Below are positions 2,656 to 45,717 of a DNA stretch of 54,577 bases, piece by piece. How positions within the stretch are numbered: the stretch's first letter is position 1; every line of letters starts with the position of its first letter. The position numbers were made by a program, and so were the translations under genes. The DNA is from a virus. The notes below the pieces were generated by a model. The model did no database searches. It saw only the letters and a list, made by a program, of their open reading frames with translations, and was not told the origin of the DNA. The stretch is from the UHGV virus genome UHGV-0031053; one strand, written 5' to 3'.

Positions 2656-3185
2656 TGGAGAATTTATATTTCAATTGGTTAGCTCAAAAGGCTATCAATG
2701 ACGAGGAAAAGAGAGCCCAATATAGTAATTTATTGATGGCTCTTTATTCTTGTCAATTTAATTATATTATTCCTAAGGATAGAAATAGGTATTTAGATGG
2801 CGTAAATCTTCGATATAGATTTGGTGATGAGTGCAACATTCCATGCAATTATGTAGCATCTGAACTAGATGTAAGAGATTGTTCAATGTTAGAAATGATG
2901 GTAGCTCTAGCAATAAGATGCGAAGAGTCAATTATGCACGAAGAATCTATGGGAGATAGGACATCATTATGGTTTTCTACAATGCTTAATAGCTTATTAT
3001 TAACATGCATGACAAATGAAAATTTTGACATTGATTATGTTTATTATAGGCTTGATATTTTTATGAATAGACAATATAAAGCTGACGGTGAAGGAGGTTT
3101 ATTCACTATTGCTAATCCTAGGGAAGATATGAGAACAGTAGAGATATGGTATCAAATGTGCTGGTATTTAGATACTATATCTTAA
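2655..3185 (+). CDS. hypothetical protein
   Basis: ORF track. ATG overlaps the upstream stop (TAATGG). Confidence 0.45.
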   Translation: MENLYFNWLAQKAINDEEKRAQYSNLLMALYSCQFNYIIPKDRNRYLDGVNLRYRFGDECNIPCNYVASELDVRDCSMLEMMVALAIRCEESIMHEESMGDRTSLWFSTMLNSLLLTCMTNENFDIDYVYYRLDIFMNRQYKADGEGGLFTIANPREDMRTVEIWYQMCWYLDTIS

Positions 3186-3206: not shown

Positions 3207-6200
3207 ATGGTAGATTTTATTCAAATATCTGCTAGATCTAAAGGCAAAGTAGTAGAAATCTACCCAAAATTTATCATTGGAAAAACTAAAGATTTAATGA
3301 TTAAAGGAGGAGATTTCTATGCTATATGGATTGAAGAAAAGGGGTTATGGTCCACTGATGAGCAAGATGTCATAACTTTAATTGACAATGAATTAACAAA
3401 GTACGCCAATGAGCATAAATCTAAGTTTGAAGATGATTACGTAAATATATTGTATATGCATGATGCTGATTCTGGAACAATAGATAGATGGCATAAATAT
3501 GTTCAAAAACAAATGCGAGATACTTATAAGGATTTAGATACAAGTTTAATATTCTCGAATGAAAAAACTAATAAGGATATGTATGCTAGTAAAACTTTAT
3601 CATATCCGCTAGTAAGTGGTAATTGTGAGAATTATGAAAAACTTATATCTACATTGTATGATGAGGATGAGCGTAGAAAAATTGAATGGGCTATTGGAGC
3701 GATTGTTAGTGGAGATTCAAAGCACTTGCAGAAATTTTTAGTATTATATGGTCCACCGGGTAGCGGTAAATCGACAATATTAAATATAGTCCAAATGTTA
3801 TTTGATGGCTACTATACAGTGTTTGAAGCATCTGTATTAGGCTCACCAAATGCTCAATTTGCTATGGAGCAGTTCAAGTCCAATCCATTAGTAGCAATAC
3901 AACAAGATGGTGATTTATCTAAGATTGAGGATAACACTAGATTGAATTCATTGATATCGCATGAATTAATGGTAGTTAATGAAAAACATAAGTCATTATA
4001 TTCAGTCAAATTCAGATGCATGTGCTTGCTCGGTACTAATAAATTTATTAAGATTACAGATTCTCAATCAGGTATGATAAGACGTCTAATTGATGTAGTA
4101 CCATCTGGGCGAAAGTTACCTAATAGTGAGTACGAAGACATAATGGGAAAAATACCATTTGAGCTTAGTGCAATAGCATATCATTGTAAGAGTGTTTATA
4201 CCAAATATGCACATTATTATGATAACTACAAACCTATTCGTATGATGGGTGAATCTAATGATTTCTTTAATTTCATATTAGACAGTTACTTCACATTTGA
4301 GAAAGAGGATGGGGTAAGTTTAAAGCAAGCATGGGAGCTTTATAAAATGTACTGTAGTGAGTCTAATATTCCTTATCCGTTGACTAAGAGAGTATTTAGA
4401 ACTGAACTTGCTAATTATTTTAGGGATTATTCGGATAGAGTTAAGGTTGGCGATGAATGGGTTAGAAGTTGGTATTCGGGTTTTAAATACGAAATGCTAA
4501 ATAATACAATCGAAAAAACAAATGCAAAAGTAGTAGATGAACCTGTGAATTATATTGACTTCAAGGAACAAAAGTCTAACCTTGACATTTTATGTGCTGA
4601 TTGTCCTGCTCAATATGGTACAGATGCAGGTATCCCTAAACGTAAATGGGATAATGTTACAACTAAGTTATCTGATTTAGATACAGCTAAATTGCATTAC
4701 CTTAAAGTTCCAGAGAATCATATTGTTATTGATTTTGATTTAAAAGATGAAGATGGTAATAAGTCGTTCGAAAGGAACTTAAAGGAGGCTTCTAAATGGC
4801 CTAAAACATATGCTGAATTATCTAAATCTGGCGGTGGAATCCATTTACATTATATTTACAATGGTGATGCTTCAAAATTATCAAGATTGTATGCTGACGA
4901 TATCGAAATAAAGATATTTACAGGCAATAGTTCACTGAGAAGAAAACTTACAAAGTGTAATAGTGAACCTATTAATACAATCAGCTCTGGCTTACCGATA
5001 AAAAAAGGAGAAGGCAAGATGGTTAATTTTGAAACAATTAACAATGAGAAGGCTCTAAGAACAATAATTAAAAAGAACCTTCATAAAGAAATACATCCGG
5101 CGACAAAGCCATCTATTGATTTTATTTATAAGGTTTTAGAGGATGCTTATGAGTCTGGTATTGTATATGACGTTTCTGATTTGTATAATGCAGTACTTTC
5201 ATTTGCTAATGCTAGTACAAATCAGTCTGAATATTGTTTGAAATTAGTAACAAAGATGCATTTTAAATCAGATTTAGCATCTGAGAGCGTTGACTATTGT
5301 GATAGTGACCCCGTTGAGAAACCTATTACAATGTTTGATATTGAGGTATTTCCAAATGTATCATTTGTTAATTTTAAACAAGTTGGCGATGATAAGCCAA
5401 TGAAAAGATTTATAAATCCAAAACCTAATGAAATTGAGGCATTAATTAAAAATCATAGGATTGTTGGTTTCAATTGTAGAGGCTATGATAATCATATTTT
5501 ATATGCGATGATGCTCGGATATACAAATATGCAATTGTATAATCTATCACAGAAATTGGTCGGGGCTAATAAGAAAGATATGAATGGTAAATATGCCGGT
5601 TTCTTAGAGGCATACAACATAAGTTATACGGATATTTACGATTATGCAGTTAAGAAACAAAAGTTAAAAAAGTGGGAACTTGAATTAATGGATGAGTGGA
5701 ATCTTAAGCATCCACATATGCAAATTAAGCACCACGAATTAGGTTTGAAATGGGACCAGCCTGTTCCTGAAGAGTTATGGCCTAAAGTATCTGAGTACTG
5801 TGATGATGATGTATATGCAACCGAGGCAACTTGGTTTGCAACTCAAGCCGACTTCAAGGCAAGAGAAATATTAGTAGAACTTGTTAAGATTATTCATGGT
5901 ATTGATGCAAATGTTAATATGACTACTAATACATTATCAGCAAAGATTATATTTGGAAATAACAAAACACCTCAGTTAAATTATGTCGCAGCTCAAGAGC
6001 AATTGCGAAAGGAATTTCCGGAGTATGAATTTAAGCAAATAACTGATGATGGCGGTAAAACACATTGGGTAAATTGGTATAGAAATACTGATTTAGGTTT
6101 CGGTGGATATATATATGCTTCACTGGGAATGTATGGAAATCTTGATGTAGAAGATGTAGAAAGTATGCATCCAACAACTATCGAGGTTCTTAAATTGCTA

Positions 6201-7154
6201 GGTGAAGAAGGTACAAAATTATTTTCAGTTATTAAAAATCTAAGAATTAATATTAAACATAAAGAATTTGATAAAGCAAGACATCTATTTGAAGGTAAGT
6301 TAGCACCATATCTTGAAGATGAGGATATGGCAAAGGGACTAGCTGGTGCATTAAAGATAGTTATAAACAGTGTGTATGGTCTTACATCAGCTAAATTTGA
6401 TAATCCATTCACAGATAGACCAAATAATGCTAATAACATTGTCGCATTAAGAGGAGCTCTTATGATGAGAACACTTCAAGATGAGGTTGAAGCTCGTGGA
6501 TTTAAGGTAGTACATATTAAGACAGATTCAATTAAGATTGCTGATGCAACACCTGAGATAATTGAATTTGTTAGAGAATTTGGTAAAAAGTATGGTTATA
6601 ACTTTGAAACAGAGGATACATTTGACCGTATATGTCTTGTGAATGATGCAGTGTATATTGCTAAAGATAAAGAAGGACAATGGCATGCAACAGGAGCTCA
6701 GTTTGCTGTACCTTACGTGTTTAAGAAATGCTTTAGTAAAGAACCTATCGAATTCAAAGATATGTGTGAAATTAAGGAAGTTCAAACTGCTATGTTCCTA
6801 GATTTTGGAGAAGGTAAGGATTTACGATTTGTAGGTAAGGTTGGTTCATTCACACCAATTAAATTAAATTGTGGTGGCGGCTTACTTGTTAAGGAGCAAT
6901 TAAAGAAAGATGGCTCTATTGGAATGGATGCGGTTACTGGCACAAAAGGATATCAATGGCTTGAATCGTCAGATGTGTCATCTAATCTACTAATGGATTC
7001 AATTGATAAGTCTTATTATGAGGAACTTGTCAATAAGGCTGTTGAAACAATAAATAAATATGGGGACTATGAGTGGTTTGTATCTGATGATCCATATCAA
7101 GGTCCTGTATATATTAATGGACGACCTGACTATTCAATCGGATGTCCATTTTAA
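3207..7154 (+). CDS. multidomain replication protein: P-loop NTPase + AEP-type primase (prim-pol) domain + family-B DNA polymerase with 3'-5' exonuclease
   Basis: Walker A LVLYGPPGSGKST (~nt 3761-3787). AEP motif I VIDFDLKD (~4730-4750) and motif II SGGGIHLHYIY (~4829-4855). PolB Exo I MFDIEVFPN (~5336), Exo II YCDDDVYATE (~5795), motif A LDVEDVESMHPT (~6148-6180; His where the steric-gate Tyr of DxxSLYPS normally sits), motif B KIVINSVYG (~6352-6378), motif C HIKTDSI (~6508-6534). Confidence 0.75.
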   Translation: MVDFIQISARSKGKVVEIYPKFIIGKTKDLMIKGGDFYAIWIEEKGLWSTDEQDVITLIDNELTKYANEHKSKFEDDYVNILYMHDADSGTIDRWHKYVQKQMRDTYKDLDTSLIFSNEKTNKDMYASKTLSYPLVSGNCENYEKLISTLYDEDERRKIEWAIGAIVSGDSKHLQKFLVLYGPPGSGKSTILNIVQMLFDGYYTVFEASVLGSPNAQFAMEQFKSNPLVAIQQDGDLSKIEDNTRLNSLISHELMVVNEKHKSLYSVKFRCMCLLGTNKFIKITDSQSGMIRRLIDVVPSGRKLPNSEYEDIMGKIPFELSAIAYHCKSVYTKYAHYYDNYKPIRMMGESNDFFNFILDSYFTFEKEDGVSLKQAWELYKMYCSESNIPYPLTKRVFRTELANYFRDYSDRVKVGDEWVRSWYSGFKYEMLNNTIEKTNAKVVDEPVNYIDFKEQKSNLDILCADCPAQYGTDAGIPKRKWDNVTTKLSDLDTAKLHYLKVPENHIVIDFDLKDEDGNKSFERNLKEASKWPKTYAELSKSGGGIHLHYIYNGDASKLSRLYADDIEIKIFTGNSSLRRKLTKCNSEPINTISSGLPIKKGEGKMVNFETINNEKALRTIIKKNLHKEIHPATKPSIDFIYKVLEDAYESGIVYDVSDLYNAVLSFANASTNQSEYCLKLVTKMHFKSDLASESVDYCDSDPVEKPITMFDIEVFPNVSFVNFKQVGDDKPMKRFINPKPNEIEALIKNHRIVGFNCRGYDNHILYAMMLGYTNMQLYNLSQKLVGANKKDMNGKYAGFLEAYNISYTDIYDYAVKKQKLKKWELELMDEWNLKHPHMQIKHHELGLKWDQPVPEELWPKVSEYCDDDVYATEATWFATQADFKAREILVELVKIIHGIDANVNMTTNTLSAKIIFGNNKTPQLNYVAAQEQLRKEFPEYEFKQITDDGGKTHWVNWYRNTDLGFGGYIYASLGMYGNLDVEDVESMHPTTIEVLKLLGEEGTKLFSVIKNLRINIKHKEFDKARHLFEGKLAPYLEDEDMAKGLAGALKIVINSVYGLTSAKFDNPFTDRPNNANNIVALRGALMMRTLQDEVEARGFKVVHIKTDSIKIADATPEIIEFVREFGKKYGYNFETEDTFDRICLVNDAVYIAKDKEGQWHATGAQFAVPYVFKKCFSKEPIEFKDMCEIKEVQTAMFLDFGEGKDLRFVGKVGSFTPIKLNCGGGLLVKEQLKKDGSIGMDAVTGTKGYQWLESSDVSSNLLMDSIDKSYYEELVNKAVETINKYGDYEWFVSDDPYQGPVYINGRPDYSIGCPF

Positions 7155-7178: not shown

Positions 7179-7772
7179 ATGAGTAATTTATCAACTAATG
7201 CTTATTTAGCATTGCAACAATCAGAGTTTATATTTGGAACTAGAAATAATGCTAAGGATATTGAAATCCGTAATGCAGTTATATTATTTAGAAACTTAGC
7301 TGGCGCTGAGCGTGTAGGTAAGAGAAAGGATGGTTCTTCATTTAAGTCACGTGGAGCTGATTTTAAGGTTGCTATTTCCGAGGAAGTATATAAAACACTT
7401 GAAAAGATTGGTACTTTCTCTATTTCAGCTTTACCAGTTGAGTTGCCTGAGAGTGAGGAAACAACATTATATTTATTAAGAGTTAAGGTTACTATGGATT
7501 CTGAGTGGCCTCCAGTTATTAAATTATATACTAAAATGAATGGTAAGACATCTGTTAATCAATTGACTAAAGATAGTATTGAAACAGCTGATAGAGTTGA
7601 AATCGATAGAGCAGATATCATCATTCATCCAAGTGAGTATGATGATGGAAAGTTCTCAGTATATTTAAAGCAAATGAATATTTGTACTGTAGAGGCTCAA
7701 GATTTTGGTGGTTATTGGGATGAACTAATTGCTTCAGATGATGTTGAGACTAATCCATTTCCTCAGAACTAA
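7179..7772 (+). CDS. hypothetical protein (possible ssDNA-binding, DUF2815-like)
   Basis: Position between polymerase and helicase. Weak resemblance of the N-terminal region (VILFRNLAGAER...) to phage SSB-like proteins. Not verified. Confidence 0.3.
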   Translation: MSNLSTNAYLALQQSEFIFGTRNNAKDIEIRNAVILFRNLAGAERVGKRKDGSSFKSRGADFKVAISEEVYKTLEKIGTFSISALPVELPESEETTLYLLRVKVTMDSEWPPVIKLYTKMNGKTSVNQLTKDSIETADRVEIDRADIIIHPSEYDDGKFSVYLKQMNICTVEAQDFGGYWDELIASDDVETNPFPQN

Positions 7773-7782
7773 GAGGTTCTAA

Positions 7783-9033
7783 ATGGAGGGAGTACAGCTA
7801 TTCGATTGGCAAGTAGAAGCTCTCCATAAAATGAAAAATGGTTGTATATTGAATGGCGGTGTCGGTTCTGGTAAGTCTAGGACTGGCATCGGCTATTATT
7901 ATATTCTCAATGGTGGAGAGATTAATACTAAAAAGTATGTGAAGATGACAAATCCTACTGACTTATATATTATCACTACCGCCAGAAAGAGGGATACTGG
8001 CGAATGGGATAAGGATTTGAAACCATATGGTTTGTCAGTTAACTCTGAGATTAATATGTACAAGAATAAGGTCATTGTAGATTCTTGGAATAATATAGGA
8101 AAATATTATGGTGTTAAAAATGCTTTCTTTATATTTGATGAGCAAAGAGTTGTTGGCTATGGAAAGTGGTCAGCTACGTTCATAGAGATATCAAAGCATA
8201 ATAAGTGGATTTTATTGTCAGCTACACCGGGCGATACGTGGATGGACTTTATACCAGTGTTTATAGCAAATGGATTTTACAAAAATAAGACTGACTTTTG
8301 TAATAAGCACGTTATATATAGTCGATATACTAACTATCCGAAAGTTGATAAGTTCTTTGGCGAAGGGCGTCTTATAAGACTTAAAAAGGAAATACTTATT
8401 GATATGGATTTTCAAAGGAAGACTATTCCGCATAAGATTAAAATCTACACAGAATATGATAAAAAATTATATTCAATTGTAGATAGGCAAAGGTGGAATC
8501 CGTATAAGGAAGAACCTATCAAGAATGCAGGCGAATGGTGCTTATGCTTGAGAAGAGTAGTTAACAGCTCAGAAGAAAGAAAAAAAGCAGTTCTAGATAT
8601 AGTAAAAGAACATCCAAAAGCTATTATATTCTATACATTTGATTATGAACTTGAGATGCTCAGGGATGTATTTAAGGATTATCCACATGCTGAGTGGAAT
8701 GGACATAAACATCAAGATTTACCTGATGGCGATGAATGGGTTTACTTTGTTGAGTATATTGCTGGTAATGAAGGATGGAATTGCATTACAACTGATACTA
8801 TTATTTTCTATTCACAGAACTATTCATATAAGGTTATGACTCAGGCTGCGGGTAGAATAGATAGGCTTAATACACCATATACGGACTTATATTATTATCA
8901 TCTTATGTCAATGTCGAATATAGATAGAACTATAGCTCGTTCATTAGCATGCAAGAAAAAATTCAATGAAAATAAATATTACGAAAGCAAATTCGGAAAT
9001 GAAAAGGAGAAAGAAATTTATGGAATTCGATGA
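7783..9033 (+). CDS. SF2 (DEAD/DEAH or SNF2-like) DNA helicase
   Basis: Motif I GGVGSGKSRTG, motif II FIFDEQ, motif III LLSATPG, motif VI QAAGRIDR. Confidence 0.75.
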   Translation: MEGVQLFDWQVEALHKMKNGCILNGGVGSGKSRTGIGYYYILNGGEINTKKYVKMTNPTDLYIITTARKRDTGEWDKDLKPYGLSVNSEINMYKNKVIVDSWNNIGKYYGVKNAFFIFDEQRVVGYGKWSATFIEISKHNKWILLSATPGDTWMDFIPVFIANGFYKNKTDFCNKHVIYSRYTNYPKVDKFFGEGRLIRLKKEILIDMDFQRKTIPHKIKIYTEYDKKLYSIVDRQRWNPYKEEPIKNAGEWCLCLRRVVNSSEERKKAVLDIVKEHPKAIIFYTFDYELEMLRDVFKDYPHAEWNGHKHQDLPDGDEWVYFVEYIAGNEGWNCITTDTIIFYSQNYSYKVMTQAAGRIDRLNTPYTDLYYYHLMSMSNIDRTIARSLACKKKFNENKYYESKFGNEKEKEIYGIR

Positions 9034-9403: not shown

Positions 9404-9922
9404 ATGACAAAATTTGGAGTTAAGTTTTCTAATTTGATTATTAAAATTGGTGGTTTTATAGCTAGTAAGAAATGGCTATATTACTTGCTAAATTATACGT
9501 GGGGATTATTACCTACATTACTTGGATGGCTATTATATTTATGCTGTATGCCATTTGCGTTCTATAAAGACAAAAGATATGGTATGAGATATATTAGCTT
9601 TGATGCTCAGAGTGGATGGGGCTTTTCATTAGGCACTTCAATATTCATTAGTAATCGTATTTCTGAGTGTGTTATACCTCATGAAATAGGGCATACAATA
9701 CAGAATGCAATATTTGGACCTTTTCAAATTATATTGGTTGATATACCTAGTGCCATAAGATTCTGGTATAGAAAGATACTCGCTAAATGTGGAAAGAAGT
9801 TAATTAAAAAATACGATGACATTTGGTTTGAATCTTCCGCTACATCTTTAGGAGTAATTATTAGTATCACTTGGAAGAGAAACTGGTCAACAGACAGAAG
9901 AAAAGAAAAAGAAAAGAAATAA
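9404..9922 (+). CDS. integral membrane protein with HExxH motif (putative zincin-like metallopeptidase)
   Basis: Several hydrophobic helices. CVIPHEIGHTIQN contains HEIGH. Confidence 0.45.
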   Translation: MTKFGVKFSNLIIKIGGFIASKKWLYYLLNYTWGLLPTLLGWLLYLCCMPFAFYKDKRYGMRYISFDAQSGWGFSLGTSIFISNRISECVIPHEIGHTIQNAIFGPFQIILVDIPSAIRFWYRKILAKCGKKLIKKYDDIWFESSATSLGVIISITWKRNWSTDRRKEKEKK

Positions 9923-10128
9923 TTGGGGGTTCAGAATTTATTCATTTGGATAAGTCTGTTCCCGTTACATATAAGTGTTTGGTCTGTGGTGGAAAACGAA
10001 CACTACGTTTCAACTATAAGGATGCTACTACAGGACAATTATGGAGATACGTTAAGTATAAGGCTAGGATTCCTTATGGTGGAAAGATAAAATGTAATAA
10101 ATGCAATGGTCTAATGCAAATGGAGTGA
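9871..10128 (+). CDS. zinc-ribbon protein (CxxC...CxxC)
   Basis: ORF track (TTG start; true start uncertain, possibly downstream). CLVCGG...CNKCNG. Overlaps the end of the previous gene. Confidence 0.3.
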   Translation: MEEKLVNRQKKRKRKEIIGGSEFIHLDKSVPVTYKCLVCGGKRTLRFNYKDATTGQLWRYVKYKARIPYGGKIKCNKCNGLMQME

Positions 10129-10137
10129 GGTGATATA

Positions 10138-10545
10138 GTGGAGCAAGAAAAAATAGAGGCAATAAAAGAAATTTTTAAACGTGATTGGCTTGGTAAGTAT
10201 AGGGATAATAATAGGGAACCTGAGTATGTCGATAAGTATCATTGTCTTACAGTGATGGGGTATTCAACTCTAAAAAAATTTGGTAATTTGCTTATATCCG
10301 AACGGCATTATCATAGATGCTTGAATTTAGCTCATTCGGAATTGTTCGGTGATGAATATGATTTAATGCCTTGCTATTTTAGTAATCAAAATATATATAA
10401 TATGGAATACAATGCTTGTGAAAGAGCCGTATTGAAGGGCATTGAGGATTTGGTTGGATTTCCAGTGGTAATTAGAAAAGTACTTGGAGAAAATGAGGCA
10501 AATGTTGTAGATTGCATTATATTTGAAAAGGGGACAAAAGTATGA
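10138..10545 (+). CDS. hypothetical protein
   Basis: ORF track. GTG start after GGAGTGAGGTG. Confidence 0.45.
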   Translation: MEQEKIEAIKEIFKRDWLGKYRDNNREPEYVDKYHCLTVMGYSTLKKFGNLLISERHYHRCLNLAHSELFGDEYDLMPCYFSNQNIYNMEYNACERAVLKGIEDLVGFPVVIRKVLGENEANVVDCIIFEKGTKV

Positions 10546-10763
10546 ATAAGAAAAATATGAAATTGCGAGATATGACTAGCGAAGATATGCAAAACTATTG
10601 TAATTTATATCATATCGATTGTTCTGACCCACATGTAAATAAATGTTTTTTTAATGGAAAAGGAATTAATTGTCGATGGTGGGACAATAACTGCTGGGTA
10701 AATCATAAGGAATTATATTCAGATTTGTTTCTAAATCAGGAAATTGAGGTGCCTGTGAAATGA
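10542..10763 (+). CDS. Cys-rich domain protein, short member of the modular Cys-rich paralog family
   Basis: C-terminus NKCFFNGKGINCRWWDNNCWVNHKELYSDLFLNQEIEVPVK parallels the tails of 11219-11614, 11615-12016 and 49114-49872. Confidence 0.45.
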   Translation: MNKKNMKLRDMTSEDMQNYCNLYHIDCSDPHVNKCFFNGKGINCRWWDNNCWVNHKELYSDLFLNQEIEVPVK

Positions 10764-10817
10764 AAGTTTATGTTGATGATGAGAAAATTCAAGAAATGAT
10801 AACAATAATGAAGGAGT

Positions 10818-11216
10818 ATGAACATGATGAGAATAACCAAAAAGCTTAACGAACCATATGTAATTGATAATAATACCATTATGTATTATGTAGATTCAAG
10901 TATGAGTGTAATTAATTCAAGTGGATTAAATATGGTTAATAAGTTAGGTAAATTAGAGGATATAGAAGAACAATTAGAGTGTCCTTTAGAAGCTAGGGAG
11001 CAAGCATTAAAGCAAGGATACATTTATACAGCATGGCATAGTAGAGATGGATTTGAAAAACAAGAAATAACCCATTTAGTTTATGACAAAGATATAAAAA
11101 TGTGGATTTTTAAAGACCTTGAAAAAAATACTGAAGGATTTTATTGTGAGTTGGCTAATATTCCTGTTGATGGATATAAAAAGACTTGGTGGCTTAGAGA
11201 GGATGGGAGTGAATAA
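10818..11216 (+). CDS. hypothetical protein
   Basis: ORF track. RBS AAGGAG. The start may be one of the ATGs at 10818-10827. Confidence 0.45.
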   Translation: MNMMRITKKLNEPYVIDNNTIMYYVDSSMSVINSSGLNMVNKLGKLEDIEEQLECPLEAREQALKQGYIYTAWHSRDGFEKQEITHLVYDKDIKMWIFKDLEKNTEGFYCELANIPVDGYKKTWWLREDGSE

Positions 11217-11218
11217 AA

Positions 11219-11614
11219 ATGAATGATAATGTAAAAAAGGTATTTGATATACTAGGTGTTGAACCTTATGAAGAGTTCAAATTGCAAACCGAAGATGGAG
11301 ATATTACTGATAAATTATATCATATTGATGATGAATTAGATATATTATGTGGTGGAAGATTAACATTTGCAAGTGTTGTTTTATTATTAAAAGGTGATTT
11401 TAAAATCATTAAATTACCAAAGAAAAAGAAACTAAGAGATTTAACAATAGAAGAGTATGAAAAATGGTATGAAAATAATTGTGGAGCTAGTGATTGTTAC
11501 GAATGTCCATTTGCTACTGTAAATTGCTCAGCTCACAGTGAAAATGGTTGGGCAAAACATAAAAACTTATTTTCAGATAAATTCCTAGACCAAGAAGTAG
11601 AGGTAAAAGAATAA
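11219..11614 (+). CDS. modular Cys-rich family protein (FDILGVEP module + KLPKKKKLRDLT/Cys-rich module)
   Basis: VKKVFDILGVEPYEEF...IIKLPKKKKLRDLTIEEYEKW...CGASDCYECPF..C...W.KHKNLFSDKFLDQEVEV. Shares near-identical nucleotide stretches with the next gene. Confidence 0.55.
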   Translation: MNDNVKKVFDILGVEPYEEFKLQTEDGDITDKLYHIDDELDILCGGRLTFASVVLLLKGDFKIIKLPKKKKLRDLTIEEYEKWYENNCGASDCYECPFATVNCSAHSENGWAKHKNLFSDKFLDQEVEVKE

Positions 11615-12016
11615 ATGACAGATAATGTAAGAAAAATATTTGATATGCTAGGTGTTGAACCTAATGAGGTGTTTAAAGTTAAAAAACGATACAGTTATTT
11701 TTACAAAATAGATGAAAAATTAAATGTATTTTTTAAATATATGTCATGTGAAGAATGGGGAGAATCAGTCATTAAAATTGGTGATTTTTTAACCGGTGAA
11801 AATGAAATTGTTAAATTACCAAAGAAAAAGAAATTAAGAGATTTAACAATAGAAGAGTATGAAAAATGGGAAGAGAGATGCTGCCCTAATAATGATTGTG
11901 ATAATTGTCCATTTTTTGCTTTTGCATGTAATAGTTCATCCGACTCTTGTTGGATAAAACATAAAGACTTATTTTCGGATAAATTCCTAGACCAAGAAGT
12001 AGAGGTGCCTGAATAA
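11615..12016 (+). CDS. modular Cys-rich family protein
   Basis: VRKIFDMLGVEPNEVF...KLPKKKKLRDLTIEEYEKW...CCPNNDCDNCPF...CWIKHKDLFSDKFLDQEVEVPE. Confidence 0.55.
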   Translation: MTDNVRKIFDMLGVEPNEVFKVKKRYSYFYKIDEKLNVFFKYMSCEEWGESVIKIGDFLTGENEIVKLPKKKKLRDLTIEEYEKWEERCCPNNDCDNCPFFAFACNSSSDSCWIKHKDLFSDKFLDQEVEVPE

Positions 12017-12391
12017 ATGATTGCTACAATAGTATGTGGATTAGTAATTATAGCGTGCATAGTGATTCTTATATTGCATTTGAACGATGTTACTTATTAT
12101 GTAAACGAGGATGCGATATTGTTATTATCTATTGTGTCTTTGCTTATATTAAGTACTAGTTTGATTCTCGGCTACGTACATAATGGTTCTAAAGAGGAAT
12201 GTGAATCAAAGAAGAATACTATTATATTTTTATTAGAGCAAAAACCAGATAAATACTCTATTGAATTGGCAGAAAAATATAATAGAAAAGAACATATTGG
12301 TAACAATTACTGGTGTAGATTTACACTTAGAGAAGAGAATACAATAGACATTTATTCTTATTTGATAGAGTATGGAAAAGAGTCTAAATAA
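12017..12391 (+). CDS. membrane protein, tandem paralog 1
   Basis: N-terminus MIATIVCGL.II.CIV identical to the next gene. Shared GNNYWCRFTLREE motif. Confidence 0.5.
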   Translation: MIATIVCGLVIIACIVILILHLNDVTYYVNEDAILLLSIVSLLILSTSLILGYVHNGSKEECESKKNTIIFLLEQKPDKYSIELAEKYNRKEHIGNNYWCRFTLREENTIDIYSYLIEYGKESK

Positions 12392-12960
12392 TGATAGCAA
12401 CAATAGTGTGTGGATTAATAATTATATTTTGCATAGTTGGGATTGCTATAATGGCATACCAATGGTTTGAATCCCTTTATGATGATGGTTCTTTCTCTGG
12501 GATTATATGTGCGTTCCTTTGCGTAATTGGTGTTGGCATAATATTCTTGGTACTATCTTTGATGATTGGCTACTATAATGTCGACTCTGATGCTAAACGA
12601 GAATTTGAAAAGAATGAAATTGTTAAGATGCTTGAAGAAGGTCCAAACGAGTATAACGTTGGCTTAGCTGAAGAGCATAACAAGAAGGAAAAGCAGGGCA
12701 ATAATTACTGGTGTAGATTTACACTTAGAGAAGAGTACTTGATTGACATTAAATCATATTTATACAATGGTAACAAAGGAGATAAGATGGACGGAATTGC
12801 AAATAGTGATTGCAAGTTTTATGATTTTGGTAAACAATACATAGAACTAAAAGAGGGGTCTATAGTAGAAGTTATAGGTAAGTCCGAAGATTATTATGTT
12901 GTACGATGGAATGGTACGACTGGTCTTATCGATAAGAAATATATAGATTTACAGGAGTGA
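12391..12960 (+). CDS. membrane protein, tandem paralog 2, with C-terminal SH3b-like domain
   Basis: Same N-terminus and GNNYWCRFTLREE motif. C-terminus YYVVRWNGTTGLIDKKYIDL is SH3-like. Confidence 0.5.
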   Translation: MIATIVCGLIIIFCIVGIAIMAYQWFESLYDDGSFSGIICAFLCVIGVGIIFLVLSLMIGYYNVDSDAKREFEKNEIVKMLEEGPNEYNVGLAEEHNKKEKQGNNYWCRFTLREEYLIDIKSYLYNGNKGDKMDGIANSDCKFYDFGKQYIELKEGSIVEVIGKSEDYYVVRWNGTTGLIDKKYIDLQE

Positions 12961-12973
12961 TTTATTAAAAATT

Positions 12974-13010
12974 AGGAAGGCGTTTAATGAACAATCCTTC
13001 TTAATTTTTG
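12974..13010 (+). terminator. rho-independent terminator-like hairpin after the early region
   Basis: AGGAAGG...CCTTCTT stem (7 bp, one G-T) followed by AATTTTT. Confidence 0.35.
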
Positions 13011-13024
13011 CCTTATAATAGTAG

Positions 13025-13054
13025 TTAATTCCTACACAATACTCGTACATTATA
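13025..13054. promoter_or_regulatory. pair of CTACA(C/T)(A/T)ATA boxes, near-identical to 47925-47953
   Basis: TTAATTCCTACACAATACTCGTACATTATA versus TTAATCCTACACAATAAACCTACATTATA. Confidence 0.6.
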
Positions 13055-13108
13055 GGGAAAATAGATGGTAATCGTACACAATTTGGGTGGAAAATTGCTA
13101 AAAAATCC

Positions 13109-13471
13109 GTGTCAAAAACCTTGTCAAATCCATGTCAATTTGTGTCAATTTTTTGGTTTTGACATGAAAATGCGAAAAATGGCGATTAAAATTTGGTGAA
13201 AAATACGAAAAAAGTGCCATTTCTGTGTCAAATTGCCACTTTTGAAAAAAAGTGTCACGGTTTTGACATGGAATTTTGACATGAAAAATTGCGAAAAAAG
13301 TGCGTTTTTTGGTCATTTTTGACTGTTTTTGGGCGTTTTTTGCCGTTTTTTGGGGTATTTTTGGGTAAAAATTGAGTTCTGTGTCAAATTGCCACTTTTT
13401 TTCTTAAAAATAAAATTTTTTTTAAAAAATAAATAATATAAAAATATACAAATTTTTTGAATTTTTTGACA
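13109..13471. repeat. array of at least 10 TGTCAA/TTGACA hexamers plus CGAAAAA-type repeats and a 22-bp direct repeat
   Basis: Four tandem TGTCAA at 13110, 13122, 13133, 13143 (10-12 bp phasing). Inverted TTGACATG at 13159, 13264, 13276, 13466. TCTGTGTCAAATTGCCACTTTT at 13222-13243 and 13378-13399. (A/T)GCGAAAAA(T/A)G at ~13170, ~13204, ~13290. Confidence 0.7.
13316..13375. repeat. phased T-tracts (intrinsically bent DNA)
   Basis: GTTTTTGGGC GTTTTTTGCC GTTTTTTGGGG TATTTTTGGGT: T5-6 runs every 10-11 bp. Confidence 0.55.
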
Positions 13472-13560
13472 TGGCGTAAAAATGAGCCTTTTTCGGCTAA
13501 AATTTAACAATATAAAAATATGCTCTAATAATATAAAATAAGATTATTTTTTTCTTTACA

Positions 13561-13630
13561 AATATAAGACGATATAAGTGAATATAAACTGATATAACCA
13601 AATATGGGCAAATATACGCGGAATATAAAA
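13561..13630. repeat. seven tandem 10-bp repeats, consensus RATATAANNN, exactly helically phased
   Basis: aatataagac gatataagtg aatataaact gatataacca aatatgggca aatatacgcg gaatataaaa. Confidence 0.7.
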
Positions 13631-13754
13631 AATAATATGACAATTATATTTAAAATATAAGGTCGCACGAAAAACAAAGTCTTTTATGGAGAGAATACGT
13701 TTTTATTTTTAATATAACAAGTTCTTTGAATTTTTGTAAAGGGGAAGAGCAACT

Positions 13755-14069
13755 ATGGCAAAAAATAAAATATATCGTGTTGAAGCTGAATATCAAAAGC
13801 ATTTGATAGAAGAAATTTATCATCGCATTGATGAAGTAACAATTCTAAAAAATGATTCTGGTTATCTACAAGGTATTCCAGATTTGTGTATCTTAGGACC
13901 ACGAGGAAAGGATGCTTTGTTAGAGGTCAAGCTTCACGAGAATTCACCACACAGACCAAACCAAGACTACTATATTCAGCGTGAATGTAAACGTGGAGGT
14001 TTTGCTAGATTTATATATCAAGAGAATGAAGAGGAAGTTCTTGGCGATTTGGTGAATTGGTTTAAGTAA
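13755..14069 (+). CDS. VRR-NUC domain nuclease
   Basis: GIPDLCILGPRGKDALLEVK matches the VRR-NUC PD...(E)xK signature. Confidence 0.7.
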   Translation: MAKNKIYRVEAEYQKHLIEEIYHRIDEVTILKNDSGYLQGIPDLCILGPRGKDALLEVKLHENSPHRPNQDYYIQRECKRGGFARFIYQENEEEVLGDLVNWFK

Positions 14070-14089
14070 TTGGAAAGGGGATTATATTT

Positions 14090-14728
14090 ATGAAGTGGAA
14101 TGACCACCATCAATTAGAAGGTAAACATGCCTTCTTAAGTGCTAGCAAATTTACTTGGCTTAATTGGGATCCAGAAACTTTGGAAATGAGATTCTATAGT
14201 CAATATCAACAAGAGATTGGAACTCTTATTCACGAGCTTGCTCACAGGCGTATTGTGTGTAGACGTAAAATTAATAAAAATGATGTCCATTTGATTGAAG
14301 ATGTCATGGACCAGAATTATATTCCAAGAGGAGCTTATGACCCAGCCAAAATATTGGAGAATTTAGTACCATTTATTAATGACGCTATTGGCTTTAGAAT
14401 GGATAGCGAAATCATTCTATATTACAACCAATATTGCTTTGGCACAACTGATGCAATCGTATATGATGAGAAGAATAAGATTCTTAGAATACACGATTAC
14501 AAGAATGGAGTTACTCCAGCACATATGGAGCAGTTATTAATCTATGCGGCATTATATTGTTTGGAATACAACAAAAATCCAAAAGATTTTGCTACTGAGC
14601 TTAGATTATATCAGTTGAGTGAAATTATTGTTCACCAACCAAAGCCAGAAGAGATATTAACAATTATAAATGTTATTAAGCAACAAACATTATGTATTTA
14701 TGGATTTGCAGGAGGCGACATTAGATAA
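14090..14728 (+). CDS. putative PD-(D/E)XK-family nuclease (Cas4/RecB-like fold?)
   Basis: GTTDAIVYDEKNKILRIHDYK fits hhhD...(D/E)xK. Also contains IHELAH, so a metalloenzyme alternative is not excluded. Confidence 0.35.
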   Translation: MKWNDHHQLEGKHAFLSASKFTWLNWDPETLEMRFYSQYQQEIGTLIHELAHRRIVCRRKINKNDVHLIEDVMDQNYIPRGAYDPAKILENLVPFINDAIGFRMDSEIILYYNQYCFGTTDAIVYDEKNKILRIHDYKNGVTPAHMEQLLIYAALYCLEYNKNPKDFATELRLYQLSEIIVHQPKPEEILTIINVIKQQTLCIYGFAGGDIR

Positions 14729-17700
14729 TGGAAGAAAATACTTTAAAGGCATCGGCCGAAGAAATGGAAATGTTCCACGATTTATTTAGTGGAGCCGAAG
14801 AACTAATTAATGAAATAAATGACGAAGATTATATTCAACATTATGGTATGCCAAGACGTTCTGGACGTTATCCTTGGGGCTCTGGTGATAATCCATATCA
14901 ACATTCAGGTGATTTCTTAGCTCGTAAGAATGAGTTAAAGAAATCTGGAATGAGCGAAAAAGAAATAGCTGATTATTTTAATATGTCAACTACACAGTAT
15001 AGAGCAGCTGTATCAATTGCAAATGCTGAGCGTAGATCATATCAAGTAGAAACAGCTAAATCATTAAAAGCTCATGGATATAATAATGTTGAAATTGCTA
15101 AAAAGATGGGATTACCCGGAGAATCATCAGTTAGGTCATTACTTAATTCAGATTCCGAATCAAGAATGAAAAAAGCAGAATCAACAGCGTCAAATTTAAA
15201 GAAATTAGTTGATGAACGAGGTATGATTGATGTCGGTATTGGTGCGGAGCGTCAATTAGGTATATCAAAAGAAAAAATGAACCAAGCACTTGAGATGCTA
15301 AAAATGGAAGGATATGAGGTTTATGGAAATAGAGTTCCACAAGCCACTAATCCCGGTAAATATACAACATTAAAAGTGCTTTGCCCTCCCGGAACTAAAC
15401 ATAGTGAAATTTATGACTATGATAAAATTAATTATATTAATGATTTAACATCAAGAGATGGCGGAGATACATTTGAACCAACATTCGTATATCCTAAATC
15501 ATTAGATTCAAATCGTTTAGCAATTAGATATGCTGAAGATGGTGGCGTAAATAAAGATGGCGTTATGGAAATACGTCGTGGAGTAAAGGATCTATCATTA
15601 GGTGAATCTAATTATTCACAAGTACGTATTTTAGTTGATGGTAAACGTTATTTAAAAGGTATGGCTGTGTATTCAGATGATCTTCCTGATGGTGTTGACA
15701 TTGTATTTAACACTAACAAGGGCAAGGATAAATCAAAAATGGAAGTTTTAAAGGAAATAAAAGAAGATTCCGAAAATCCATTTGGTTCTTCAGTAAGATC
15801 AACCTATTATATTGATGAAAATGGAGAAAGACAGCTATCATTAATAAACAAGCGTTCCGACGAAGGAGAATGGGGGAATTGGTCAGACCATTTGCCATCG
15901 CAGTTCTTAGCCAAGCAATCTTTAAGCCTTATTAAGAAGCAATTAAATTTAACAGCATCTGATAAGGAGGATGAATATGATGAAATATGTCGTCTTACTA
16001 ATCCAACAATTAAAAGAAATATGCTAGAAACGTTTGCTGATGATTGCGACTCTGCTGCAGTTCATTTACAAGCTGCTGCATTGCCAGGTCAAAAATATCA
16101 GGTTATATTACCATTGACATCAGTCAAAGATACCGAAGTATATGCACCAAATTTCAAAGATGGTACGCAAGTAGCACTTGTGCGATATCCACATGGTGGA
16201 ACATTTGAAATACCAATTCTTAAAGTAAATAATAAACTTGAAGAAGGCAAGAAAATGATGGGTACAAATCCAGCTGATGCTATTGGTATAAATAAAAATG
16301 TAGCAGATAGATTATCTGGTGCTGATTTTGATGGTGATACTGTAATGGTTATACCACTAAGTGATAAGGTAAAAATAACTTCTACTAAGCAACTAAAAGA
16401 ACTAGAAGGATTTGATACTAAATTAGCATATCAATATGATGACAAGGTAAAAGATGCTAATGGTAAAGAACATTACTATCGTGCTGGCAAAGAAATAAAA
16501 ATTATGAACAATACCCAAACAGAAATGGGTAAAATTTCAAATCTTATCACAGATATGACATTAAGAGGTGCTTCTACAGAAGAGTTAGCACGTGCTGTTA
16601 AACATTCAATGGTTGTTATTGATGCTGAAAAGCATAAATTAGATTATAAACAATCTGAAATAGACAATAATATTGACCAATTGAAACGTGATTATCAGGG
16701 GCGTGAAGACAGTACACGTTATGGTGGAGCTTCAACTTTAATTTCTAAAGCTAAGTCACCAATCATAATTAATGAAAGAAAAGATGGTGCTTTCTTTACA
16801 AAGGAAGGAAATCATCCAGCATCTGTGGTTGATGAAGATAAGAAAATATATGTAGATGATATTACTGGTGAAATACTAAAGCGTAATCAACTTAAGCCAG
16901 TTGTATATGTAAATCCGGAAACTGGTGAAAAAATGTATCATGATACAAATCGTACATTTAGACAAGCTGTTTATAAGGATTCTAATGGTAAAACTAGAAA
17001 ATCTACTGTTATTACAAAAGATGGAAAAGATTATTTCAAAGATGAGGATGGACAATATACTCAAGTTACAAATGAAATAATTAAGGTTAGAAAAGCAACT
17101 CAAGAATCTACAAAAATGGCTGAAACATCTAATGCAAGAACACTATCATCTGGTACCCCACAAGAGGAAGCATATGCAGAATATGCAAATAAAATGAAGG
17201 CTTTAGCCAATAGAGCAAGAAAAGAAGCATTAGTTACTAAGGATATTCCATATTCTCCAGCAGCTAAGGAAGCATATTCAGAAGAGGTTAAGACCCTTAA
17301 TGCTAAATTAAATATAGCCGAACTTAATGCACCTAAGGAAAGACAAGCTCAAACTATAGCAAATACAGCTATTCGAGCTCAAACGCAAGCAAATCCTAAG
17401 ATGACTAGTGAGGAGAAAAAGAAATTATCTCAAAGAGAAATAGCTAAAGCTAGAATTAAAGTAGGTGCGGGTAAGAAAAATATAGAAATAACACAAAAAG
17501 AGTGGGCAGCCATTCAAGCAGGTGCCATTTCTAAATCTCGCTTACAAAATATCATAAATAATTGTGATACAAAGACGCTGAGACAGTTAGCTACACCTAG
17601 AGATAAGGTATCTGTAAGTAGTTCTAAGATTGGTCGTATGAAGAGTATGGCTAATTGTGGATATACCAATGCAGAAATAGCAGAAGCCCTAGGATTATCA

Positions 17701-17739
17701 GCTTCTACTGTAGTTAAATATATTAATGGAAAGGAGTAA
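14728..17739 (+). CDS. single-chain RNA polymerase homologous to multisubunit RNAP beta/beta-prime (YonO-like), fused to HTH DNA-binding modules
   Basis: Beta-like DPBB: VDGKRYLKGMAVYS (nt 15634-15675) and LPDGVDIVFNTN (15688-15711), cf. GDKMAGRHGNKGVIS...GTPVDIVLNP. Beta-prime-like DPBB: VALVRYPHGG...FEIPIL...SGADFDGDTVMVIPLS (nt ~16180-16365), cf. VLLNRAPTLHRLG...NADFDGDQMAVHVPLS. HTH-like segments near the N-terminus (MSEKEIADYFNMSTTQYRAAVSIA; YNNVEIAKKMGLPGESSVRSLL) and at the C-terminus (GYTNAEIAEALGLSASTVVKYI, sigma region 4/LuxR-like). Confidence 0.75.
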   Translation: MEENTLKASAEEMEMFHDLFSGAEELINEINDEDYIQHYGMPRRSGRYPWGSGDNPYQHSGDFLARKNELKKSGMSEKEIADYFNMSTTQYRAAVSIANAERRSYQVETAKSLKAHGYNNVEIAKKMGLPGESSVRSLLNSDSESRMKKAESTASNLKKLVDERGMIDVGIGAERQLGISKEKMNQALEMLKMEGYEVYGNRVPQATNPGKYTTLKVLCPPGTKHSEIYDYDKINYINDLTSRDGGDTFEPTFVYPKSLDSNRLAIRYAEDGGVNKDGVMEIRRGVKDLSLGESNYSQVRILVDGKRYLKGMAVYSDDLPDGVDIVFNTNKGKDKSKMEVLKEIKEDSENPFGSSVRSTYYIDENGERQLSLINKRSDEGEWGNWSDHLPSQFLAKQSLSLIKKQLNLTASDKEDEYDEICRLTNPTIKRNMLETFADDCDSAAVHLQAAALPGQKYQVILPLTSVKDTEVYAPNFKDGTQVALVRYPHGGTFEIPILKVNNKLEEGKKMMGTNPADAIGINKNVADRLSGADFDGDTVMVIPLSDKVKITSTKQLKELEGFDTKLAYQYDDKVKDANGKEHYYRAGKEIKIMNNTQTEMGKISNLITDMTLRGASTEELARAVKHSMVVIDAEKHKLDYKQSEIDNNIDQLKRDYQGREDSTRYGGASTLISKAKSPIIINERKDGAFFTKEGNHPASVVDEDKKIYVDDITGEILKRNQLKPVVYVNPETGEKMYHDTNRTFRQAVYKDSNGKTRKSTVITKDGKDYFKDEDGQYTQVTNEIIKVRKATQESTKMAETSNARTLSSGTPQEEAYAEYANKMKALANRARKEALVTKDIPYSPAAKEAYSEEVKTLNAKLNIAELNAPKERQAQTIANTAIRAQTQANPKMTSEEKKKLSQREIAKARIKVGAGKKNIEITQKEWAAIQAGAISKSRLQNIINNCDTKTLRQLATPRDKVSVSSSKIGRMKSMANCGYTNAEIAEALGLSASTVVKYINGKE

Positions 17740-18000: not shown

Positions 18001-18041
18001 AATAAGCTCAAAAAGCAATAAAAAAGCTTAAAATGGCTTAA

Positions 18042-18120
18042 CCCCACCCCGGGGGAGGGTATCGCAAAAGACACCCCCTCCCCGTATCGGGTCGGTCCTA
18101 AAAAATTCCCCACGGGAAAA
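18042..18120. other. GC-rich structured island in AT-rich DNA (hairpin GGGGAGGG/CCCTCCCC), candidate cos/packaging site or structured RNA
   Basis: CCCCACCCCGGGGGAGGGTATCGCAAAAGACACCCCCTCCCCG, then a second imperfect palindrome AAAATTCCCCACGGGAAAATTTT. Lies directly upstream of terS, HNH and terL. Confidence 0.4.
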
Positions 18121-45419: not shown

Positions 45420-45462
45420 GTCGCAGTTAAAACATTCCTTTTAATGAAGGAGGAATACTGCT

Positions 45463-45657: not shown

Positions 45658-45688
45658 GCGTGAAATACAAACGCTCTTCTTTTTTTTC
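45657..45688 (+). terminator. rho-independent terminator
   Basis: GAGCGT gaaatacaa ACGCTC followed by TTCTTTTTTTT. Confidence 0.55.
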
Positions 45689-45717
45689 GCAAATTTTACA
45701 AGTGTTTTAATGGAAGA
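45689..45717 (+). promoter_or_regulatory. conserved 28-mer box CGCAAATTTTACAAGTGTTTTAATGGAAG (second copy at 48543-48569)
   Basis: Near-identical sequence immediately downstream of a terminator in both places. Candidate promoter or operator. Confidence 0.4.

Follow-up and report, generated by a model that had tools for sequence, protein, structure and literature searches.

An AT-rich spacer clamped by repeat boxes as a possible replication origin with an embedded promoter in a phage family spanning two bacterial phyla

What is a non-coding stretch of about 800 bp, packed with short phased repeats, doing among the replication and recombination genes of a gut phage? The stretch, positions 12961-13754 (the hub), lies in UHGV virus genome UHGV-0031053, a complete temperate gut phage genome of ~54.6 kb; the whole of these 54,577 nucleotides was analysed and is called the window. 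Its G+C content is ~32%, its plus strand holds nearly all genes, and the phage sequence recurs as 15-55-kb contigs in several human-gut metagenomes, including one of 54,906 bp. A preliminary description of the window had characterized the hub as non-coding, with phased repeats and AT-rich, presumably bent DNA, which is borne out here, and had proposed for it both a replication origin and a promoter/activator array, which are also the two leading explanations in this study. In our interpretation, the hub acts as the principal cis-acting assembly site in a phage family, and we favor the reading that it may be an iteron-type replication origin with an embedded promoter, at a probability of about 0.45. 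AT-rich, repeat-rich intergenic hubs are already familiar in phages and plasmids; of interest here is a defined element of ~100 bp that crosses bacterial phyla.

This element emerged from comparison with relatives. More than 220 related loci were found among viral contigs and bacterial genomes by searches with the RNA polymerase and the helicase/DNA polymerase of the phage; they are prophages of Lachnospiraceae, Oscillospiraceae, Ruminococcus, and others, at 50-65% identity in the RNA polymerase. The set was completed by three annotated phages: Faecalibacterium phage FP_oengus, Lactococcus phage 1706 (locus L165), and Arthrobacter phage CapnMurica (L229). In most loci, a multi-copy 7-mer is found in the largest of the non-coding gaps that precede the RNA polymerase gene; the commonest is AAAAGTGGGCA, in up to 10 copies, and related loci carry up to 13 repeat copies. 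Other lineages use TGTGTCAC, GTGGCCA, TGGTCAAA, ACTGGTATAA, TGTAACA, or TGGCACA, and a few loci have unrelated palindromes. The core of the element follows one plan: one or two boxes with CAC at their end lead into 6-8 T, followed by 45-60 bp of nearly pure A+T, 5-8 A, and the same boxes inverted. A strict regular expression for an arm and T-run followed by an A-run and inverted arm matched 24 loci against none in reversed-sequence controls; it was replaced by a profile of 22 aligned cores, with which all 246 loci were searched by nhmmer. The preliminary description had made its case depend on conservation of the repeats in related phages, and a conserved architecture is what the profile finds, with a single-copy core in 150 of the 246 loci. 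The best match lies on the gene strand in 144 of these 150, and a weaker opposite-strand match at the same position is due to the arms being near-palindromes.

The consensus of 133 distinct cores, each ~100 bp long, reads TTttGcCCAcTTtCCCACTTTTTTT.ttaatttatT.tGAtAaAAAa.ttaAatataTATAta.Aat..g..aaaAAAAgTGGGcattTGgcCA, and the AT-rich spacer is kept across all of them. The arm consensus is GCCCACTTTCCCAC-T7 ... A7-GTGGGC-ATTT-GGCCAC, in which the left arm consists of two direct GCCCAC/CCCAC boxes 9 bp apart and the right arm is the small palindrome GTGGGC-ATTT-GGCCAC (family palindrome GTGGGCATTTGGCCAC). Box sequences vary by lineage (GTGGGC, GTGACA, GTGGCA, ACTGGTA, TGTAACA, TGGCACA), whereas the architecture is constant. 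The repeat array flanks the core on one side: over 116 distinct cores, the density of extra arm 7-mers per 700 bp is 2.90 on the upstream side of the core, 0.06 on the downstream side, and 0.07 in the rest of the sequence, and at least three extra copies are found upstream in 71 of the 116 cores and downstream in none. The conservation extends to the lytic Arthrobacter phage CapnMurica, whose host has a much higher G+C content and which carries the same AAAAGTGGGCA and GGCCAAAAACCCACTTTTT boxes and the same core as gut Clostridia prophages, suggesting that the conserved reader of the boxes is encoded by the phage and not by the host. Throughout the family the element lies within the replication/recombination module, in most genomes 0.8-2.9 kb upstream of the RNA polymerase gene. 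In a compact sub-clade (L178, L181, L183, L188, L191-197, L209, L222, and L231) it is instead directly upstream of the helicase/polymerase gene, between that gene and a homolog of the window gene at 2655-3185; thus, the element does not simply travel with the RNA polymerase operon.

The window core is a divergent member of this family and comprises the following parts.

13377-13475, plus strand: conserved core
13380-13403: left arm of the core, TGTGTCAAATTGCCAC followed by T7, including part of the second copy of a 23-nt repeat (13377-13399)
13396-13457: spacer of the core, 96.7% A+T
13463-13475: right arm of the core, TTTTTTGACATGG, inverted

The arm sequences of the window phage are TGTGTCAAATTGCCAC-T7 and TTTTTGACATGG, and its right arm TTTTTTGACATGG matches that of its closest relatives, L001, L002, L232, and L238 (TTTTTGACATTTGACAC). 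At both 40 and 60 bp, the window's duplex of lowest stability falls in the spacer, with 13398-13457 at -56.6 kcal/mol against a mean of -72.9 (standard deviation 4.2), and 13396-13455 is 96.7% A+T. The next gene starts 280 nt past the core.

The hub holds about 25 short repeats of two related kinds, TGTCAA/TTGACA (B-type) and AAAAGTGSCA/TTTTTGGNC (A-type), many of them at 10-12-bp spacing. Those upstream of the core are arranged as follows.

13103-13148, plus strand: four tandem (A)AATCC(R)TGTCAA units, B-type boxes
13155-13304, both orientations: mixed array of both box types, which also contains (A/T)GCGAAAAA three times and copy one of the 23-nt repeat
13159, 13263, and 13276: inverted B-type boxes, TTTTGACATG; a direct B-type box at 13226
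13208-13219 (AAAAAGTGCCA), 13233-13243 (TTGCCACTTTT), 13245-13257 (AAAAAAAGTGTCA), and 13294-13304 (AAAAAAGTGCG): A-type boxes
13302-13367, plus strand: six TTTTTG(G/A)NC units at 10-12-bp phasing, degenerate B-type boxes

Together with the core, this region (13103-13475) contains 10 TGTCAA, five AAAAGTGSCA-type, and six TTTTTGGNC units, with tandem subsets 10-12 bp apart. The four repeat systems of the preliminary description are all present and above chance, although several counts had to be corrected. Its at least 10 TGTCAA/TTGACA hexamers are exactly 10 in 13110-13471, where 0.29 are expected (Poisson P about 1e-12), and four of them are indeed in tandem, at 13110, 13122, 13133, and 13143 (spacing 12, 11, and 10). 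To these we add the second box type, AAAAGTG(C/T)(C/G), at 13210, 13248, and 13296, and its inverse (G)CCACTTTT at 13235 and 13391; the hub holds five of the ten such sites of the window, interleaved with the TGTCAA boxes, and in the window the A-type box represents the AAAAGTGGGCA repeat seen across the family. The direct repeat reported as 22 bp is present in two copies but is 23 nt long and exact (13221-13243 = 13377-13399), and the (A/T)GCGAAAAA repeats do occur three times in the array (13172, 13205, and 13291), although with 15 copies window-wide their enrichment is modest.

The T-tracts immediately before the core are phased, as had been described, but they number six rather than four (13305, 13316, 13326, 13336, 13346, and 13358; spacing 11, 10, 10, 10, and 12). 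The eight 80-bp segments of the whole 54.6 kb with the strongest 10-11-bp T-tract periodicity all fall at 13271-13306, with a power of 2.4 against a genome mean of 0.06 (standard deviation 0.11). With the tracts in phase with the helix, intrinsic curvature is expected. Since these units read TTTTTG(G/A)NC, they are degenerate members of the box family rather than a separate system, and the four systems are therefore not independent, the second and third being one. In a strain variant (L250), a clean 10-bp deletion equivalent to 13334-13343 has removed exactly one T-tract unit and so preserved the phasing, while the few other strain-level substitutions lie mostly outside the TGTCAA hexamers.

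From these features we infer protein binding, bending, and melting, and with them a reader of the boxes and origin and promoter activity, in the following way. A conserved phage protein would coat the phased boxes, bend the DNA, and clamp the spacer from both sides; the spacer, the least stable duplex of the genome, would melt, and the helicase/polymerase would load there. The core would also carry an outward, rightward promoter, to which a separate promoter-shaped element, P3 (13663-13698), would come second, and origin firing would probably be coupled to transcription of the nuclease/RNA polymerase operon downstream. An origin is supported by the many phased boxes in both orientations, by the minimal stability of the segment that they clamp, and by the single copy of the core. 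Conservation independent of host phylum, with lineage-specific boxes in a constant architecture, would likewise be in its favor: in iteron/initiator pairs, repeat sequences diverge by lineage while the architecture persists. The position of the element directly before the helicase/polymerase gene in the compact sub-clade is how replication genes classically sit next to their iterons.

The weighing of this reading depends in part on the genes around the hub, the principal ones being listed here together with the integrase.

3207-7154, plus strand: fusion of a D5-like SF3 helicase and a DNA polymerase, 1315 aa, candidate initiator
7179-7772: single-strand annealing / single-stranded-DNA-binding protein gene
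7783-9033: SNF2-type helicase gene
9404 to 12960, directly before the hub: series of small genes without assigned function
13755-14069, plus strand: VRR-NUC endonuclease, first gene of the downstream operon
14090-14728, plus strand: PD-(D/E)XK exonuclease, second gene of the downstream operon
14728-17739, plus strand: RdRP/YonO-like two-barrel single-chain RNA polymerase, 1003 aa, with helix-turn-helix (HTH) domains at its N- and C-terminus
46550-47764, minus strand: tyrosine integrase

Hence, the hub does not lie between early and late regions, as had been suggested, but inside the replication/recombination part, where the small accessory genes give way to the VRR-NUC/exonuclease/RNA polymerase operon; the terminase and structural genes start ~5-6 kb beyond it. 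A GC-rich island at 18040-18110 (ccccaccccgggggaggg ... cccctccccg), between the RNA polymerase operon and the terminase-like genes, could be a cos/pac site or a strong terminator. Three paralogous DUF6353 genes lie in the early region (1024-2046, 52954-53796, and 53780-54544), at least one of them with an apparent N-terminal membrane helix, and FP_oengus likewise carries three.

Several observations weigh against an origin. The fixed direction of the core, the close gene start, the preceding hairpin, and the spacer consensus TTGtGA-17-TATAta fit a plain promoter/operator at least as well, and ribbon-helix-helix (RHH) genes upstream (18 loci) and XRE genes downstream (L071 and L147) are the usual context of a transcriptional switch. 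A profile built without the window has its best match in the whole window at 13376-13407, which recovers only the left half of the core (E = 0.005). GC skew and AT skew show no sign change at the hub, although skew is uninformative for an origin here because all genes are co-oriented, and 12901-13800 contains no DnaA box (TTATCCACA, at most one mismatch). When box type was compared with 60-column segments of the helicase/polymerase, covariation amounted to at most +0.12 identity and was inconsistent among three box groups, and none of the other proteins encoded in the 24-kb loci tracks box type. Finally, the literature searched yielded neither a description of the element nor an experimental origin mapping for any member of the family.

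The strongest rival explanation is accordingly a purely transcriptional hub, which we regard as a serious if tentative possibility. The AT-rich core would then be a host-type promoter of the nuclease-RNA polymerase operon that works without the phage RNA polymerase, for example at prophage induction, and the boxes would serve a conserved phage regulator, responsible for timing or silencing the operon, as operators or enhancer-like sites, with no role in replication. Besides the orientation of the core on the gene strand, what speaks for a promoter is that in about one-third of the 116 distinct cores the next gene, with a ribosome-binding site, begins 17-25 nt past the right arm, and that a GC-rich hairpin stands just before the core in L157, L163, L178, L188, and L197. 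Given these gene starts and hairpins, a rightward promoter very probably lies within the core or borders it. The spacer consensus adds TTGtGA-17-TATAta, and sigma-A-like matches (at least 9 of 12 positions) favor the gene strand over the opposite one by 73 to 46 among the 133 cores. Yet this asymmetry is modest, and in TTGtGA-17-TATAta, GA, AAA, and TATA are best conserved, whereas the TTG of the would-be -35 holds the least conserved positions. In the window itself, a promoter scan of 12500-14200 returned 13 sites where 8.9 +/- 2.8 are expected, which is not above chance.

Neighboring regulator genes bear on the same question. In the 18 loci, the array comes directly after the end of an RHH (CopG/Arc-like) gene, which ends 218-360 bp before the core in the seven of them that have a recognizable core, and in L071 and L147, the two loci that were read for this, an XRE-type HTH gene begins right after the core. 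Such loci (L071 3351-3850; L147 4360-4730; L157 3330-3516) also carry extra palindromic repeats, TTGTACGTACAA, TATGCGTATATGCATA, and GGATATCCA. A transcriptional hub would treat the RHH/XRE sites of these loci, together with a CCTACAC box and an ATATAA block of the window described below, as further regulatory inputs; the CCTACAC box is common to the hub and the integrase region, suggesting a lysogeny-linked regulator, and the element is always upstream of the RNA polymerase gene. On the other hand, 10-25 sites in both orientations over 300-400 bp far exceed most operator sets, and the boxes are conserved from lytic actinophages to temperate Clostridia phages, unlike fast-diversifying repressor/operator pairs. 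In addition, no small DNA-binding regulator is recognizable in the window by Pfam/PHROGs scans of ~40 proteins. An immunity repressor is unlikely to be the box reader. A promoter and an origin need not compete: judged by known replicons, the two readings are compatible and not mutually exclusive. Iteron plasmids have inverted half-repeats over a promoter, bound by the initiator, and the origins of lambda, T7, and T4 need transcription.

A further argument against the need for an operon promoter in the core is P3, which occupies a short interval between the core and the first operon gene.

13663-13698, plus strand: P3, TCGCACGAAAAACAAAGTCTTTTATGGAGAGAATAC (form CGCA-N16/17-TATGGA), 57 nt before the start codon of VRR-NUC

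Such an element precedes the VRR-NUC gene in the window, L001, L002, L085, FP_oengus, and CapnMurica, in the last of which the core and P3 both stand before the endonuclease/exonuclease/RNA polymerase genes; with P3 in place, a second promoter 10-700 bp upstream would not be needed. In its general form, CGCA-N16/17-TA(T/A)(T/G)G(A/G), P3 gives 316 profile matches in 210 loci; the gene strand carries 301 of these, and a genome often has several, standing before early genes. P3-like matches within 3 kb of the core average 0.85 downstream against 0.09 upstream. This distribution is that expected of a phage promoter family. The window has one copy at high stringency, and further P3-family sites, often immediately behind a hairpin, are seen at about 45421-45450, 45683-45720, 47815-47850, 48194-48223, and 48537-48575. 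Two consecutive small genes where the early region begins have near-duplicate leaders, (T)GTCAACGCAGAAAAAA..ACAAATTA(C/T)TTTGTGGAGGTAAAGATAGTATGAAA, at 47805-47875 and 48180-48240. Being multi-copy, conserved across phyla, and of a motif unlike sigma-A promoters, P3 is a candidate promoter for the phage's own YonO-like RNA polymerase. A 32-bp "boundary repeat" has been reported for cluster AU phages (10.1101/2020.01.10.891226); to judge from its distribution before successive early genes, the sequences themselves being uncompared, it probably belongs to the P3 family and not to the repeat array.

If P3 serves the RNA polymerase, which protein reads the boxes? The RNA polymerase family is a signature of a phage supercluster spanning Actinobacteria and Firmicutes (bioRxiv 10.1101/842583), and since lytic actinophages and temperate Clostridia phages have the commonest box in identical form, its reader must be among the few proteins found throughout that supercluster. 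One proposal is the polymerase itself, bound through its three HTH domains (two N-terminal, one C-terminal and sigma-region-4-like), with the hub as its loading site or main promoter for its own operon and for the late genes through the genome end. It is the only family-wide protein with recognizable sequence-specific DNA-binding domains, it is conserved across phyla as the boxes are, its gene always follows the hub, and SPbeta YonO transcribes one long late operon from a single start site (PMC5467207). Nevertheless, we consider this quite unlikely. Among ~45 polymerases associated with CCCAC, GTCAC, GCCAC, CCAGT, or unrelated boxes, none of the three HTH domains shows a consistent change of the recognition helix with box type; the element of the compact sub-clade stands several kb from the polymerase gene, before the helicase/polymerase gene; and it is P3 that shows the multi-copy, gene-strand distribution expected of phage-polymerase promoters. 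The repeats as a promoter array for the phage RNA polymerase, an alternative raised in the preliminary description, therefore do not fit, as they occupy one spot per genome and their variation is not mirrored in the HTH domains.

The best candidate reader, by analogy, is the SF3-helicase/DNA polymerase fusion. SF3-helicase replication proteins such as P4 alpha, SV40 T antigen, papillomavirus E1, and AAV Rep recognize their own origins. Sequence searches of the PDB with the helicase/polymerase and the RNA polymerase gave no matches, and AlphaFold models of two conserved early proteins, of high and partial confidence, had no informative structural neighbors. Family scans and the PDB search detected no separate primase domain in the fusion. 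A variant of the origin reading would make the core a transcription-primed origin, fired by the YonO-like RNA polymerase, possibly virion-carried, whose transcript would prime the helicase/DNA polymerase fusion; we hold this to be doubtful. That the polymerase may be carried in the virion is suggested by phage 1706, whose homolog is annotated as a structural protein in EU081845. If the core were such a transcription-primed origin, T7-type logic would have been re-invented with an unrelated RNA polymerase, from phages of Actinobacteria to those of Firmicutes, and the CGCA-N16/17-TATGGA elements would be the promoters of this polymerase class. Phage 1706 also has its own repeats (L165 4680-5100), comprising two full and two partial copies of CTATCACGAAAAAACTTCGGGAAAACTTCGGGATT and several shorter AAAACTTCGGGA units, directly upstream of the RNA polymerase gene, with the endonuclease and exonuclease genes elsewhere.

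Two other functions can be attributed to short repeats in both orientations with bent DNA, since these also mark parS/parC and the binding regions of terminase small subunits: a centromere-like partition site, as the preliminary description had suggested, or a pac/cos packaging site. Both are very improbable. A centromere-like site has no support: Pfam or PHROGs scans of ~40 proteins gave no ParA/ParB-like match, and an integrase is encoded. As for packaging, the linear records of 1706 and CapnMurica end after the RNA polymerase operon, 3.5-4 kb past the hub, assuming that record ends are physical ends; the terminase-like genes of the window lie ~6 kb downstream of the hub; and a better packaging-site candidate is a repeat region after the RNA polymerase gene in several relatives. 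This second repeat region (e.g. AATATCAC x9) is directly downstream of that gene in L182 (18404-19430), L200 (11983-12283), L209 (19242-19471), and L191 (13504-14436).

That the hub might be decayed or mis-called coding sequence, or functionless low-complexity DNA, is scarcely credible. In its favor are an AT-richness like that of the rest of the genome and two minus-strand open reading frames (ORFs), of 72 and 65 codons, in mechanical ORF lists. These ORFs, at 13098-13316 and 13313-13510, were rightly taken for translations of the repeats: their peptides are of low complexity and rich in K, F, and T, they are unconserved, and gene callers make no calls in the hub on four independent metagenome contigs that span the stretch with its sequence almost unchanged. 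Moreover, the repeat statistics are far from chance and the architecture is conserved in 150 loci, including those of another phylum. Some coding sequences annotated at this region in deposited genomes are probably the cis element rather than genes, e.g. gp83 and gp84 of CapnMurica (NC_041951), which overlie its array and core (L229 23800-24144 = record 53799-54143). At the DNA level, a blastn search in distant mode against 50,697 deposited phage genomes found no match to the hub. A known structured RNA is not supported either: in an Rfam scan of the whole window, no family reached the gathering score.

The remaining features of the hub lie outside the array and core.

12966-13010, plus strand: terminator-like hairpin (AAAAATTAGGAAGG / CCTTCTTAATTTTT), ending the upstream small-gene operon
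13031-13054, plus strand: two-part box CCTACACAATA-N3-GTACATTATA, with a half-copy GTACACAAT at 13074-13082
13561-13630, plus strand: seven RATATRNNNN units with a superimposed 20-bp A/G alternation

The hairpin, recognized as terminator-like from the outset, folds at -15.7 kcal/mol (z = -3.95; none of 200 shuffles as good) and is followed by TTTTT; folding thus supports it, although a strict-rule terminator scan of 12500-14200 found none. It could work in both directions because it is flanked by an A-run and a T-run, and L001 and L002 have a hairpin and T-run at the equivalent position. The "CTACAC box pair" next to it corresponds to CCTACACAAT at 13031 and GTACACAAT at 13074. CCTACAC occurs seven times in the window against 2.5 expected; five copies are intergenic and on the plus strand, and four of these flank the integrase gene. 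The 24-nt two-part version, CCTACACAATA-N3-STACATTATA, is restricted in the window to 13031 and 47930 (47930-47953), where none is expected by chance, and at both places it sits directly after a hairpin. The copies at the integrase, all on the plus strand, are a tandem pair at the 3' end of the gene (46532-46549) and those upstream of it (47766-47772 and 47930-47953); CCTACAC boxes could be arm-type sites of the integrase or operators of a lysogeny-linked regulator. Close by, between a DUF6431 zinc-ribbon gene and the integrase 3' end, 46337-46436 is the least stable 100-bp stretch of the genome, and after it, within 46337-46490, follow hub-type boxes (TTTTGACACA, AAAATGGCA, CACACTTTTTT, and TTGTCAA). 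This region could be attP or a second locus for the putative hub-binding protein.

At the other end of the hub, the ATATAA block had been described as seven repeats with an exact 10-bp period. ATATA(A/G/C) does recur at 13562, 13572, 13582, 13592, 13602, and 13612, six units at exactly 10 bp, but the seventh, at 13623, comes 11 bp on; a three-unit ATATAA pattern has three matches against 0.15 expected. Apart from strain-level copies of the window phage, the block has no match in 230 related loci, and it is missing at the equivalent position in L001, L002, L085, L157, L163, and FP_oengus, whereas strain-level contigs that cover it have it near-identical (at most two substitutions). Found only in strains of the window phage, the block stands outside the conserved device; like the CCTACAC box, it is probably a lineage-specific addition and a putative site for another regulator.

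Phages with the helicase/polymerase fusion and the YonO/RdRP-like RNA polymerase make up a very large group that has barely been studied experimentally: it includes hundreds of prophages of gut Lachnospiraceae/Oscillospiraceae, FP_oengus, 1706, and many phages of Arthrobacter, Gordonia, and Streptomyces. The single-copy element of ~100 bp and the multi-copy P3, both conserved across two phyla, are thus probes for the initiator or regulator, for the origin, and for the specificity of YonO-like polymerases. Were the hub only an operator/promoter region, it would be ordinary, though unusually well conserved. Known systems of that kind, namely the promoters bound by the RHH repressor omega of pSM19035 (7-10 heptads), the TP901-1 late promoter with its Alt-binding repeats, and the phi29 p4/p6 early-late switch on bent DNA, share with the hub short sites in mixed orientation upstream of or over a promoter, and bending; the hub family resembles them further in its RHH neighbors (18 loci), its fixed direction, and the close gene start. 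In contrast to them, the window has no recognizable gene for an RHH protein or other small regulator, the sites of the hub are more numerous and more widely spread, its boxes are common to lytic actinophages without lysogeny, and a separate P3 precedes the operon.

The primary origin of T7 combines two promoters of the phage RNA polymerase, 1.1A and 1.1B, with an AT-rich region that follows them, and its transcripts prime replication. Like T7, the hub phage has its own RNA and DNA polymerases, its hub joins promoter-like elements to an AT-rich segment, and no separate primase domain was detected in it. However, the polymerases are of different types, T7-like in one and two-barrel YonO/RdRP-like in the other, and T7 lacks repeat arrays; transcript priming at the hub, as in T7, is pure conjecture. 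The origins of lactococcal phages (c2 ori, and the per elements of sk1 and phi31) are, like the hub, non-coding and placed at a gene-module boundary in a phage of Firmicutes, with direct and inverted repeats, AT-rich DNA, and an internal promoter. Their sequences and replication proteins are unrelated to those of the hub phage, they were established by experiment ("Per" effects) whereas the hub is known from sequence, and the hub element is conserved far beyond one host genus.

The closest parallels are the iteron origins (pSC101, F oriS, R6K gamma, P1 oriR, lambda ori, and P4 ori/crr). As in the hub, helix-phased direct and inverted repeats stand by an easily melted AT-rich segment, inverted copies overlap a promoter-like segment, the whole lies beside or inside a replication module, and the repeat sequence varies by lineage while the architecture stays constant. 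In P4, the repeats are read by an SF3-helicase protein, the alpha primase-SF3 helicase, as we propose for the hub. The differences are equally clear. At 6-11 nt, the hub repeats are very short; they come in two kinds, interleaved and set within A/T runs; the hub lacks DnaA boxes; and its element is 6-10 kb from the helicase/polymerase gene in most genomes. Moreover, the spacer of the hub is clamped on both sides by inverted arms, whereas the melting segment of iteron origins lies to one side of the repeats, and the hub core is conserved across two bacterial phyla.

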